The position numbers and the translations under genes were made by a program. This document shows positions 53,136 to 60,187 of a DNA stretch of 64,000 nt, piece after piece; positions within the stretch are counted from its first letter, which is position 1, and each line of letters begins with the position of its first letter. The notes under the pieces were generated by a model, which made no database searches, was not told the origin of the DNA, and saw nothing but the letters and a program-made list of their open reading frames with translations. The stretch is from an uncultured Chlamydiales bacterium (GTDB taxonomy: Bacteria > Chlamydiota > Chlamydiia > Chlamydiales > FEN-1388): positions 704,608 through 768,607 of the forward strand of contig CAWGYH010000005.1 in the NCBI GenBank assembly GCA_963826935.1. Direction: 5' to 3'.

Positions 53136-53474
53136 CTAACAACCGCTGCACGCGTAGTCTGTTCCCCATGATTGGCTGATCGGGGCCGGCTGGCCCCGAT
53201 CACCACCTTGACTTTAATGGGCCCACTTCATAAACTTAATGATTAAAAAAAAGGTCAGGCCTCATAGTACCATAGTTGCAAACTGAAAAAAGGGTCAAAA
53301 AAACGAACTCCCGTTTGACCCCGTTTAAAAAAATACTGCGGCGGCTTGTCATAGGATAAAGTCCCGTAGCCGAAGTAAGTTGGTATGGATTGTGTGTAGT
53401 AAATTCAATTTAACTTAGAGGGGATTGTGCCAGTAAATATTACACAAAATGAACTTATAACGGATGATTAGTCT

Positions 53475-56105
53475 ATGAAGCCACAAAGCGCTCATTATGC
53501 CAATACTCAAAGGCAATCTTTAAGTGCACATCTTTTTGCTGTTGGACATGTCGCAGAATTGTTAATAAAACGACTAATGCCAGAAATAAAACCTTTAGCT
53601 GATGCCGCATTTATTGCTGGTTGTTTACATGACCTTGGAAAAATTGATTCTCATTTTCAGACTTGGGTAATAAATCCTAAACAAAAGAATTTTATTGCGG
53701 AAGATGGACAACATATTGATGAAAAGTTTAGCTTTGAAAAACATCCAAGGCATAATGAGCTTTCTTTATTGCTGTACAATCTTTTGAATCAGCCAGAAAA
53801 CAAAACCATTAATAGCCAAAATAAACAATCAATAGAGCATTGTATATATTGGCACCATGCCAAACCGTTCCGGAAAGACAAAGACTATGTAACCCTCAGT
53901 GATATATATTCAAACTTTTGTAACAATATTAAGGGGCAAGATTGGGAAAATTTCAGTAAAAGTGCATTTACCTGTATCCAGGAAATCTCGGAGATAGACT
54001 TACGGTACCGAGCATCTGAAGTGTCAATTTTAACCAAATTGATCCCTAAAGATTTAGTGATAGATAACGACAAAGTGAACGACTTAAACAAAACTTTATT
54101 GCCGGCATATAAAGAGTACAATAATCAAATTGAAAATATCGAAGAATATGTACGCCATATTAAAAAAAATGCAATAAATAATATTTTGCGAGCTGCTCTG
54201 ATTACAGCTGATCGCATAATTTCTTCTTTAGATGCTGAAGTATTGTTGAAACATATCGCTCATCGAACATTAGATGAGATAGTTTGTGAGGAATTGAAAA
54301 ATGAATCGATGCTGTCCGAGCATATACAACAATGCTTAAATTATTTTGAGCATAAATACCCTATTAGTGAGCGCAATTTAGAGCAAAAAGCTGCTGCAGA
54401 ACGCCTTCAAGGAGTGAGTAATGTTGGCGTTTTAGCCGGTGCTGCCGGCTGTGGTAAAACTAAAATTGCTTTAGAGTGGGCGAAGTTGAAAAAAGCGAAT
54501 AAAATTATATGGATTTGCCCTCGCGTTCAGGTATGTCAGGGTATCTTTAATGATCTTATTTCAGAAGCTTATTTGCCGAATGCGAAAGTGGAAATAAACA
54601 CTGGTGAATTCAAATTTACAAATAGCTGGGAAAGTCCTACCGATGAAGGTGCATATTTTTCGGGCGATGTGGTTATTACAACGATTGATCAAGTGTTGGG
54701 TAATATTATTACCCACAAAAATGTAACGGGGTTGATCGACTATTTAAATGCACATGTCATTTTTGATGAATATCACGAATACATAAATATGCCAGCATTT
54801 AATTTATTGTTTGCTGAATTGGTGCAGTGTAAAAAAGAATTAGATAGCGGTGCCAATATATTATTGGTCTCTGCAACACCAAATTACTATTTTACTAAAA
54901 ATTTTCTTAAAATAGATGATTTTAATATTATTAAAATGCCATCTTTTAATAAAAGCGAATACAAAATTAATTTTGTCGAATATGATGAAACATTAGAGGA
55001 TGATAGTAATCCATTGTATAAGGCTCAAGCAGGAGTGGTATTTGTCATTAGTAATACGGCAACTACGGCCCAAAAAAGCTTTATTCGAAATCATACTGTA
55101 GAAAATGCAGTATTACTGCATTCAAAATATAAAAAAAGTGACAAAAAGAATTGGTTTAACGAAGTGTTCGAATCATTTAAAAATGATGGCACGCGTAAAT
55201 TTGACGTGTTGCGCAGTGGGCCGATTGTTCAAGCCTCTTTAAATATCAGTTGCGACCACATGATTACTGAATTAACCAATGCCGAAAACTGCTTGCAGCG
55301 ATTGGGGCGATTGGATCGATTTGGGGTAAACAAAAAAACCAATCTCTTAAAAATTACTATTCCTGAAAGTTTACATGACGGTAAGGGCAGTGGGGCTGCA
55401 GCAAGGTATTTATCCCGACTGTACATATTCAATTCGTCGCGAGCATGGTATGATTTTTTGCGATGTAAACTTTCTGATAACTCTTTCAAACTGCCAGAAA
55501 TCTACCAGTTGTATGAAGAGTTTTATAATCTAGATAATACCATTAAAAAGATCGAAAGCGATTTGTTAAGTGCCTTGAAAAAAAGCGTAGTTGTCATTAA
55601 GGATAAAGTTATTGATCCGATTGCGATTCCTTCTAAAAAATCCCAAAAAATTGGAGTTTTAAAAATAAGTAAAAATTCTTTACGAGGAGGCAATCGATTT
55701 GTGCAAATGGCTGTCTGCGAGGTTAACGCAGAAAACAAGCTAAATTTCATTGAACAATACGCATATTCTTTTATCGAAAGTGAAACAGTGGACAATTTGA
55801 CTGCTTCGATTGAAAAAATTCAAGGGTATGGTGATAGTAATAATAATCTATTAGCACATATGGCAAAGAAACATCACAATATGATTGATGGCGCTAAGAA
55901 AGCTTATAAAGACATCGTCTTGCTTACTCAAGCATTGTCGCCAGAGTTTCCAATTTATTTAAGCTATACACCTTCTGATTTAGCTAAAGTAGGTGGAGAG
56001 TCTAGTCGCCATTCCGAGGCGATGTATTATGTGGTTACCGACAAGCAACCTGTTGGAGCGATGTCGGTGAAATATTTATTTAATAATGGAGTATATAATG
56101 AATAA
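53475..56105 (+). CDS. cas3: Cas3 HD-nuclease/helicase, not fused to Cas2
   Basis: The N-terminal HD domain starts within 20 aa of the start ([29 protein letters not shown]). Helicase motif [12 protein letters not shown], motif [10 protein letters not shown], motif III VSATP. 876 aa, with no Cas2-like N-terminal extension. Confidence 0.85.
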
Positions 56106-57081
56106 GGTTACAGGTATTAAGAGTGTTGATTTTAAAATCGTTTCTCGAGGATATGGCGTAGTGAATTGGAACGGGCCCACAACCTTGGTAGGCGATGACG
56201 GTAAAAATGTGGATAACCATACTTTGCCCAAACTGCGCGGTTACAGCAATTTATCCGGTAAAGTAAAGGACGAGAATGGCTACAAATATAAAAAACAAGC
56301 TACTGATATAAATTTCAAAGAAACACCATTATATATTAGTCAAAATTGTATTCGTCATCATTTATTCCGCGATCAAACTTTTGATTTGCATTTTGCTGGG
56401 AAAAAAAATTTAGGGCTTGTGTTGGCTTCAATTACAGGATTGGTTCGTGGTTTTGTGGTGCCCGAGAGCCAATGCAAACGGACAAGTCCATTATTGCTAG
56501 AGGATTTTGTTGATCAGTTGGGTAATGGCAATTTTGAGCAAATGGGACGCTCTGGCTCTAAAGCAAAAGGTACAGATGAAGAAGGTAAAGCAATTGCAAG
56601 TAATTCTTTTTTTTCAAAAACCACTTTCGGTGAAACAGAGTACATCTCTTATGGTTCGATAAGCATTGAGCAACTGCAATTCATTTCTCTAGATAAAAAA
56701 TTCGATCGCGCGGCCATGATTATTGATGACAGTCAGGGTGAAGTGGTTGCTAAAGCTGTGCAAGATTTTATCCAACAACTTGACCCAAAACGTAACCCGA
56801 AAATTACTTTTCATAACAACTATGTTCGTAAAGGCACGATTTTTGAAGAAGGTGAGGTGGGACTTTTATTAGACGATGAAGCTGTCGATATTGTTGTTAA
56901 TGAAACTTTACGAATGATCAAAGAGCTTAATATCCGACAAGCTAAAGGCTATATGTACGTGCACACAATTGAGGAAGACTACAATGATAGTCACAAAATG
57001 ATGCGCATTAAACACTTTCCAAACGAAATAGAGCAAAAATCGGATAAATCTTATGCTGTCTATTTTTATGCAAAATCATAG
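56098..57081 (+). CDS. cas7fv: Cascade backbone subunit, Cas7fv-like (assignment by position and size)
   Basis: First of only two genes between cas3 and cas6f. About 327 aa. Start ATG 56098 (ggag 6 nt upstream) overlaps the cas3 stop. Gene order matches the Cas8-less type I-F variant (cas3-cas7fv-cas5fv-cas6f). No family motif could be verified by eye. Confidence 0.55.
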
Positions 57082-59047: not shown

Positions 59048-59615
59048 GTTCACTGCCGCATAGGCAGCTTAGAAGAACGAGAGAGGCTTTTGTAGAAATT
59101 GTACAAAGTTCACTGCCGCATAGGCAGCTTAGAAGATGTAGGCTAATGGACCTTTTGTCATCTTAAGGTTCACTGCCGCATAGGCAGCTTAGAAGAATAA
59201 AGGTGCAGGAAATGGCGGAGTAACTTAGTTCACTGCCGCATAGGCAGCTTAGAAGATCAATAATATTTGCATCGCCCTGCTGCCTCAGTTCACTGCCGCA
59301 TAGGCAGCTTAGAAGACATAAATCACCTCCGAATAAACATTTTATTCGTTCACTGCCGCATAGGCAGCTTAGAAGACGAAAGCCTGGGCGAGATCAGGTT
59401 CATTCTTGTTCACTGCCGCATAGGCAGCTTAGAAGCAACTTCCACCTGAAGTTAGGACTTATTTTGAGTTCACTGCCGCATAGGCAGCTTAGAAGATAAC
59501 CAGCCGATACATGTCATTAACATAAATGTTCACTGCCGCATAGGCAGCTTAGAAGCAACTCAACAGTCCTGACAGGCTTGCGAATAAGTTCACTGCCGCA
59601 TAGGCAGCTTAGAAG
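59048..59615 (+). CRISPR. CRISPR array 1: 10 identical 28-bp type I-F repeats, 9 spacers of 32 bp
   Basis: The repeat GTTCACTGCCGCATAGGCAGCTTAGAAG starts at 59048 and recurs every 60 bp to 59588. The stem CTGCC/GGCAG matches the canonical I-F repeat GTTCACTGCCGTATAGGCAGCTAAGAAA. Confidence 0.97.
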
Positions 59616-59977
59616 TTCAGCGTAACTGAAAATGCCGAATGATGATTAGGAAAATTTTTGTGTATAAAAACTTACTCTAGATATTGTTACGACGGCCGGA
59701 TGCCTTTGGTTTGAGGGACCATTTGGGTTAAGTGGCGGAACAGCCTATGTAGACGTCGTACGCATACGCGAGCGGCTCATGCTAGAATACGACTGGGGCT
59801 GCGAAGCAACAAACCCGAAAAAGCGCATGGCAAACACTCAAAAAATCAAAACTGGCGCGCTTATTTCATTTAACTCAACCCCTTGACCTTAATGGCATCT
59901 TTGAACAGTTAAAGGAAAAGGGTCCTGGCTTGAAAAAAAAGGTCAAAAAAATGCAAACTGTGATACTGTGAGGCCCC

Positions 59978-60187
59978 GTTTTCTGCCGCGTAGGCAGCTT
60001 AGAAGTTGGGACATTATCAAAAGACCCTCAAGTTAATGGTTCACTGCCGTGTAGGCAGCTTAGAAGAAGTTCTTGATCAGGAACAGGATATATATACATG
60101 TCCACTGCCGCGTAGGCAGCTTAGAAGATACTTAGCAGTCACCTCGTCGTAATCGGAGTGTTCACTGCCGCATAGGCAGCTTAGAAG
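59978..60187 (+). CRISPR. CRISPR array 2: 4 repeats (3 variant, last one consensus), spacers 33/33/32 bp
   Basis: Repeats at 59978 (gttTTctgccgcGtaggcagcttagaag), 60039 (gttcactgccgTGtagg...), 60100 (gtCcactgccgcGtagg...) and 60160 (consensus). The hairpin stem is preserved in all four. Confidence 0.9.

Follow-up and report, generated by a model that had tools for sequence, protein, structure and literature searches.

An orphan leader-like block adjoins the breakpoint of a truncated cas2-3 gene in an interference-only type I-F2 CRISPR locus of a chlamydia

A small CRISPR-Cas locus occupies the final 11 kb of the window, the 64-kb stretch of contig CAWGYH010000005.1 from an uncultured Chlamydiales bacterium that was analysed here. 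Two similar non-coding blocks on the plus strand bracket its cas genes and array 1. The left block, L (53200-53326), lies upstream of cas3, and the right block, L' (59875-59977, compared here together with the GTTT of the following repeat), is the leader of array 2. We hold with moderate confidence that L and L' are old, diverged paralogous leaders, and that a deletion fused L to a truncated cas2-3 gene, removing an upstream array, cas1 and most of the Cas2 domain. The locus itself is most likely an ordinary decaying CRISPR locus.

L and L' have collinear blocks in common on the same strand. L contains CCTTGACTTTAATGG at 53206-53220, an A-run followed by GGTCA (A-run+GGTCA) at 53245-53257 and again at 53286-53303, and CCCC+GTTT at 53319-53326. 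L' contains CCTTGACCTTAATGG at 59881-59895, AAAAGGGTCCTGGCTTGA at 59916-59933, A-run+GGTCA with a second A-run at 59934-59951, and CCCC at 59974-59977. CCTTGACTTTAATGG and CCTTGACCTTAATGG are the sole two matches in the window when up to two mismatches are allowed. The octamer CCCCGTTT ends L (53319-53326) and is found again at 59974-59981. The shared blocks that the initial annotation had quoted from 53206-53326 and 59881-59981 were all found there. Its remark that the right-hand octamer runs into a degenerate first repeat of array 2 also holds, CCCC being followed by a full-length repeat at 59978-60005.

Local alignment of 53150-53345 with 59830-59995 gave a score of 36, above every one of 1000 dinucleotide shuffles (mean 19.2 ± 2.9, maximum 31). 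Measured against about 3,170 real 160-nt windows on both strands (16 ± 2.9), L and L' were mutual best matches with scores of 35-36, except that L' has one match stronger than L, its own partial copy at 60236-60261. The similarity is real and patchy: over 127 nt of L and 107 nt of L' there are 84 matching positions, 6 mismatches and 15 gap events, and the longest exact run in common is 13 nt. In the best collinear alignment GCAAACTG of L (53278) is unpaired with GCAAACTG of L' (59952), the latter pairing with CGAACT at 53304.

One common element is an A-rich motif. AAAAARGGTCA occurs on the plus strand at 53247, 53287, 58978 and 59935, four observed against 0.10 expected. A looser pattern set after inspection of the data, AAAARGGTYM, has 10 matches against 2.3 expected, and 6 of the 10 are on the plus strand inside the ~1.1 kb of non-coding DNA of the locus.

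The right end of L coincides with a break in cas2-3. The nearest Cas3 relatives found by protein search (62-74% identity) are 969-978 amino acids long and carry PF21384 (Cas3_I-F_Cas2). Six contigs from five of these relatives were compared; five of the six show the order cas1, cas2-3, cas7fv, cas5fv, cas6f, and the sixth (L048) stops within the gene after cas2-3. The closest relatives, at 70-74% identity, all have cas1 and a cas2-3 of 969-975 amino acids. In the window, cas3 (53475-56105, plus strand) encodes 876 amino acids with an HD nuclease and a helicase, as indicated by Pfam matches, and without a Cas2 domain. Its start Met is internal in the relatives. A tblastn search with the N-terminus of a relative found residues 55-105 upstream of the cas3 start, in two frames and with an in-frame TAG. 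DNA homology to cas2-3 of two relatives (L043 and L044, 975 amino acids) begins abruptly at 53328, which is codon 54 and one base past the terminal CCCCGTTT of L. Because the homology starts at 53328 and CCCCGTTT ends at 53326, L abuts the scar of the event within one base.

The remnant of the Cas2 domain (53328-53474, plus strand), delimited by tblastn and by DNA alignments to L043 and L044, covers approximately codons 54-102 of the 975-amino-acid relatives and is broken by a frameshift of 1 nt close to 53405 and by an in-frame TAG (53469-53471). Neither Cas1 nor residues 1-54 of Cas2-3 are encoded in the 64-kb window as searched by tblastn. The adaptation module, cas1 together with the cas2-cas3 fusion, is missing here through secondary loss; the locus can no longer acquire spacers and is interference-only. 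An independent Logan assembly (L041, 100% identical) of run ERR10755938 has exactly this left junction.

The remnant is 73-79% identical to four relatives with one gap column, and the next 450 nt of the intact gene are 76-79% identical. As the remnant is about as close to the relatives as the intact gene is, in contrast to the 15 gap events between L and L', L appears to have diverged from L' long before the fusion. At the time of the fusion L would already have been an old separate copy, and no recent copy of L'. In L', CCCC precedes a full-length repeat that starts with GTTT, and for this reason L seems to keep a leader and four repeat bases. This terminal GTTT of L equals bases 1-4 of the variant first repeat of array 2 and shares with it the T at position 4 that departs from the array 1 repeat. 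Because only GTTT of a repeat remains, L is at most a relic and no current leader.

The presence of GCAAACTG in cas2-3 of relatives had raised the idea that L and L' go back to the 3' end of cas1 or to the 5' part of cas2-3 that was lost. It was rejected, alignment scores being at shuffle level.

The leader of array 1 (58728-59047, plus strand, 320 nt) is the canonical leader of this lineage. It contains AAAAAGGGTCA at 58978-58988, which is the A-run with GGGTCA that the initial annotation had seen there, and the GGT core of this motif is at -64 from repeat 1. The GGT core is at exactly -64 in all five canonical leaders compared (leader 1 and those of L043, L044, L046 and L049), which are otherwise diverged in sequence. 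The leaders of L043, L044, L046 and L049 were combined into an nhmmer profile, which matched leader 1 at 58926-59042 (E = 1.7e-8). A-run+GGTC is a leader motif. In leaders of type I-F arrays the Cas2 dimer holds two inverted repeats, and there are two sites for integration host factor (bioRxiv 10.1101/2023.05.26.542337). The leaders of the I-F2 relatives have nested inverted repeats, in which ACCCAA (about -132) is paired with TTGGGT (about -67) and GTTAYAACA (about -88) with TGTTRTAAC (about -33). L' contains an 8-bp inverted repeat, TTGACCTT at -95 and AAGGTCAA at -39, which is similar to these pairs in geometry. L' also lies directly upstream of a first repeat on the strand of its array, where a leader is expected. 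By its content and its end, L is probably a leader relic.

The history that we propose is as follows. L' would be the leader of the small, decaying array 2, and L an old paralogue of it, so that the two represent a second type of leader in the locus. L would once have headed its own array upstream of cas1, co-directional with the cas genes. Fairly recently, a deletion or some equivalent illegitimate rearrangement would then have joined base 4 of the first repeat of L (GTTT) to codon 54 of cas2-3, and would have removed the array of L, cas1 and the first 53 codons of cas2-3. The product would be an I-F2 interference module of cas3, cas7fv, cas5fv and cas6f with two arrays and without spacer acquisition. 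That an array once followed L, and that a single deletion is responsible for the damage, are the conjectural steps of this scheme. The common blocks would be a kind of leader grammar, in which A-run+GGTC is the counterpart of the proximal inverted-repeat motif in leaders of type I-F and TTGACY is its inverted partner; TTGACY also resembles a -35 box. Without Cas1-Cas2, the A-run+GGTC motifs probably have no remaining function.

The initial annotation had offered, as one of two readings, that the left copy may be what remains of the leader of an upstream array since lost. The breakpoint at the end of L, the retained GTTT, a motif at -70, close to the canonical -64, and the absence of cas1 and of the first 53 codons of cas2-3 support this, and no repeat relic is detectable beyond GTTT. 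The argument that I-F loci often have an array on each side, with which that reading had been supported, is weakened by the relatives and by the Pseudomonas arrays discussed below.

Several observations weigh against the deletion scheme. The spacing of the GGT core in L (-70 and -30 relative to GTTT) and in L' (-57 and -37) deviates from the canonical -64. The four-leader lineage profile misses both L and L' even at E = 100. A 26-leader I-F2 nhmmer profile has no match anywhere in the window, a result of little weight because it misses leader 1 too. No relic of a repeat was found past GTTT after L, where the best repeat alignment is no better than those of shuffles, and four bases are thin evidence for an array. 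Position and motif content alone qualify L' as a leader. In the 40 I-F2 relatives examined, the arrays are located downstream of cas6f; in only three of the 40 loci (L006, L007 and L022) does a single isolated repeat-like match lie on the opposite strand, and in L007 and L022 it is upstream of the Cas5fv match. In none of the collections searched does a relative have an L-type leader or the intact arrangement of L, array and cas1. The flanking arrays of Pseudomonas type I-F1 loci are divergent (PMC13142298), and the relic L points the same way as the cas genes. Finally, the duplicated trailer and the extra motif copy around array 2, described below, show further rearrangements outside the deletion model.

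Searches with L itself gave little. Pattern scans for the blocks of L had no match in genome contigs and none in viral contigs, and blastn of L and L' against plasmids found no match. A single metagenome match to the combined L pattern was discarded as the ordinary promoter of a pilin-like gene, unrelated to the locus. Because no relative carries an L-type leader, the history of the locus stays a reconstruction.

Among other explanations, the one that survives best is that L and L' are promoter/operator regions of a shared regulatory module, with A-run+GGTC as operator sites for one factor and the similarity kept by selection. We consider this unlikely. It would account for the six plus-strand copies of AAAARGGTYM in the non-coding parts of the locus, and for the -35-like TTGACY with which both blocks start; the sole outside match to the combined pattern is the promoter of a pilin-like gene. 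In L the consensus scan also found a promoter-like, sigma-70-type site, TTGACT-17-TAAACT (53208-53236), at a sensible distance upstream of cas3. The same scan found no acceptable -10 element in L', and no regulator gene is evident in the locus. The fixed -64 motif of relatives with cas1 and cas2-3 fits a motif of the integration complex better than an operator. Shared regulation also leaves unaccounted for why L ends at the cas2-3 breakpoint and why CCCC+GTTT was kept.

The site in L does suggest what now transcribes the interference genes. The native cas1 promoter is gone, and for this reason the promoter-like site at 53208-53236 probably drives the cas3 operon. A bolder version, to which we give rather little credence, is that the orphan leader was recruited as promoter/operator of the cas3 operon after the adaptation genes had been deleted in an obligate intracellular chlamydia. 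If this were true, the interference genes and array 2 would share one control region of A-run+GGTC and TTGACY, whose six copies are confined to the non-coding DNA of the locus.

The second reading of the initial annotation, that the block of cas genes and array 1 was gained or lost by recombination between the repeats, found no support. L and L' would then be the direct repeats at the boundaries of an integrated or excisable block, and their common orientation on either side of it, the location in a variable island where IS481 and IS110 transposases occur along with defence genes, and the other short duplications around array 2 would be in keeping with this. The copies are too diverged for such a role, with 15 gap events and no exact run beyond 13 nt, and the left junction falls not within the shared homology but right where L ends, in a truncated gene. 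The bracketed block contains no recombinase, and neither the window nor any collection searched has a further copy of L. We regard recombination or mobile-element boundaries as quite improbable.

The least probable explanation, which we reject, is a Cre-type regulatory mini-array, in which an RNA of array 2 resembling CRISPR RNA would partly match the cas promoter in L and repress it: array 2 does have degenerate repeats and adjoins L', and standalone repeat-like regulatory elements of CRISPR-cas loci are described in a preprint (bioRxiv 10.1101/2023.03.03.530964), but the spacers of both arrays and the trailer have no above-chance match in 53100-53500 or in the leaders, the best full-length matches reach at most 22 of 33 bases and are located elsewhere, 12-nt seeds have no match with fewer than two mismatches in the scanned regions (none with fewer than three in the cas promoter) and none after a CC protospacer adjacent motif, and the common blocks sit in the leader, outside the spacers.

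We then return to L and L' as paralogous leaders and compare the locus with known systems. The I-F leaders defined for Pseudomonas aeruginosa also include a promoter. Like them, L' is directly upstream of a first repeat starting with GT; it has an 8-bp inverted pair spaced much like those of the I-F2 relatives, and both L and L' have A-run+GGTC. Unlike I-F leaders in general, L is without an array, and the Cas1 and Cas2 partners that would read the motifs are absent here. Canonical I-F2 leaders show no detectable homology to L or L' and differ from them in the phasing of the motif (-70/-30 in L, -57/-37 in L'). The CRISPR2 and CRISPR3 arrays of P. aeruginosa (PMC13142298) are a parallel for paralogous leaders in one genome, with array copies made by recombination. 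Those leaders differ by 3 bp, whereas L and L' are patchy and old and one of them has no array; the cas-flanking arrays of Pseudomonas are divergent there, whereas the present locus is fully co-directional.

The type I-F2 system of Shewanella putrefaciens CN-32 consists of cas1, cas2-3, cas7fv, cas5fv, cas6f and one downstream array (PMC4937334). The window locus has the same Cascade genes in the same order and an I-F repeat of 28 nt, and here too an array lies downstream of cas6f. It differs from CN-32 in the deletion of cas1 and the Cas2 domain with a pseudogene remnant left behind, in a second small array with a different leader, in the orphan leader upstream, and in its chlamydial host. 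Two loci of other bacteria, L210 (8001-14380) and L211 (633-5856), resemble it in having a Cas3 of 874-875 amino acids without Cas2, no cas1 and the same three Cascade genes. They differ in having no repeat-like relic of an array in the sequence covered, and L211 has no array after cas6f there. Such loci without cas1 and the Cas2 domain indicate that loss of adaptation is recurrent in I-F2. Because their Cas3 is only 57% identical to that of the window, the losses are independent events.

The repeats are thus useful as a landmark that pinpoints the breakpoint at which cas1 and the Cas2 domain were lost, and they point to more arrays having once been present in the locus than now. For annotation this means that the locus should be entered as type I-F2, interference-only and with a cas2-3 pseudogene remnant, and that calling it an intact adaptive system would be wrong. 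The fixed -64 A-run+GGT motif is a small addition to what is known of the architecture of I-F2 leaders. A subtype I-E system was described in 2016 as the first CRISPR locus of the Chlamydiales order (PMC5010888), and with the present type I-F2 system the few CRISPR loci reported from environmental chlamydiae gain another. An orphan leader with a deletion scar in a decaying CRISPR locus is another case of a known phenomenon, and the general understanding of CRISPR loci is unchanged.

The locus is assigned to type I-F2 (I-Fv) because it has matches to Cas5fv_helical and Cas_Csy4, encodes a Cas7fv-like protein and lacks a large subunit. The minimal Cascade genes follow cas3 on the plus strand: cas7fv (56098-57081), cas5fv (57091-58140) and cas6f (58137-58727). 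In Pfam, window proteins matched Cas5fv_helical (7e-62) and Cas_Csy4 (5e-51); the Cas7fv-like match and the gene calls were obtained on the identical Logan contig L041. No large subunit (Cas8f) is encoded in the locus, which has the combination of Cas7fv, Cas5fv and Cas6f without Cas8f that is typical of I-F2. Array 1 (59048-59615, plus strand) has 10 identical 28-nt repeats (GTTCACTGCCGCATAGGCAGCTTAGAAG) and 9 spacers, each repeat matching Rfam CRISPR-DR4 with 45.7 bits. The Rfam scan of 52000-61000 found CRISPR-DR4 repeats only, and no tRNA genes were found near the locus.

Array 2 (59978-60187, plus strand), separated from array 1 by 362 nt, has 4 repeats and 3 spacers. Its first repeat, GTTTTCTGCCGCGTAGGCAGCTTAGAAG (59978-60005), is a full-length 28-nt repeat that covers positions 1-28 of 28 of the Rfam model with 34.7 bits (gathering score 35). 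Compared with the repeat of array 1, it has the changes C4T, A5T and A13G; the second repeat has C12T and A13G, the third T3C and A13G, and the fourth is identical. A13G is common to the three newer repeats. Both arrays end in an identical consensus repeat followed by a 41-nt trailer (59588-59656 and 60160-60228). The trailer of array 1 (59616-59656, plus strand) recurs after array 2 at 60188-60228 on the same strand with 40 of 41 bases identical, and the second copy is also found on an independent Logan contig, L042. This suggests that the arrays share a seed or have exchanged ends; they may descend from one seed repeat with its trailer.

As the initial annotation had pointed out, a piece of the right copy recurs after array 2. 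Just past the array, TTAAAGAAAAAGGGTTCCTGGCTTGA (60236-60261, plus strand) is an extra piece with the leader motif, 24 of its 26 bases being identical to 59909-59933. Together with the trailer copy it points to at least two further segmental duplications around array 2. The 218 nt between the trailer of array 1 and L' (59657-59874, plus strand) are richer in GC and contain no open reading frame of note; they gave no structure signal (z = 0.19) and no match in loci or plasmids. Three viral scans, made with spacers 1 and 2 of array 1 and with the trailer, revealed no protospacer.

On its left, L is adjoined by a perfect GC-rich hairpin (53178-53201) with a 10-bp stem and a 4-nt loop, GATCGGGGCC GGCT GGCCCCGATC. 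It is a single exact match in the window (0 expected) and marks the start of the similarity between L and L'. It lies between the AbiU2 gene and L and could be a terminator, or else a palindromic element specific to this genome. A 14-nt half-copy of it is present at 47438-47452, after an open reading frame ending at 47439.

The host is an environmental chlamydia, as its CTP synthase (33948-35561) resembles genes of uncultured Chlamydiales genomes (89-90% identity). From ~36.5 kb onward the window resembles a variable island, containing genes for ankyrin-repeat proteins and PP2C-like proteins as well as an AbiU2-type HEPN gene. This gene and fragments of insertion sequences (IS) lie upstream of the CRISPR locus. 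An intact IS481-family transposase, an IS110-family transposase and a 96-amino-acid N-terminal IS481 fragment were seen within 39120-41995 and 51899-52189, the last of these 1.3 kb upstream of the locus. The collections contain no close relative of the flanks: on the right flank, a gene of 996 amino acids has no relative in the genome contig collection, and exact look-ups of flank sequence returned the same sample only. An ABC-transporter ATPase fragment at the right edge of the window (63432-63944) is most similar (74%) to alphaproteobacterial and Rickettsiaceae genes, its matches being confined to non-chlamydial taxa, which suggests horizontal acquisition for the right flank of the locus as well.

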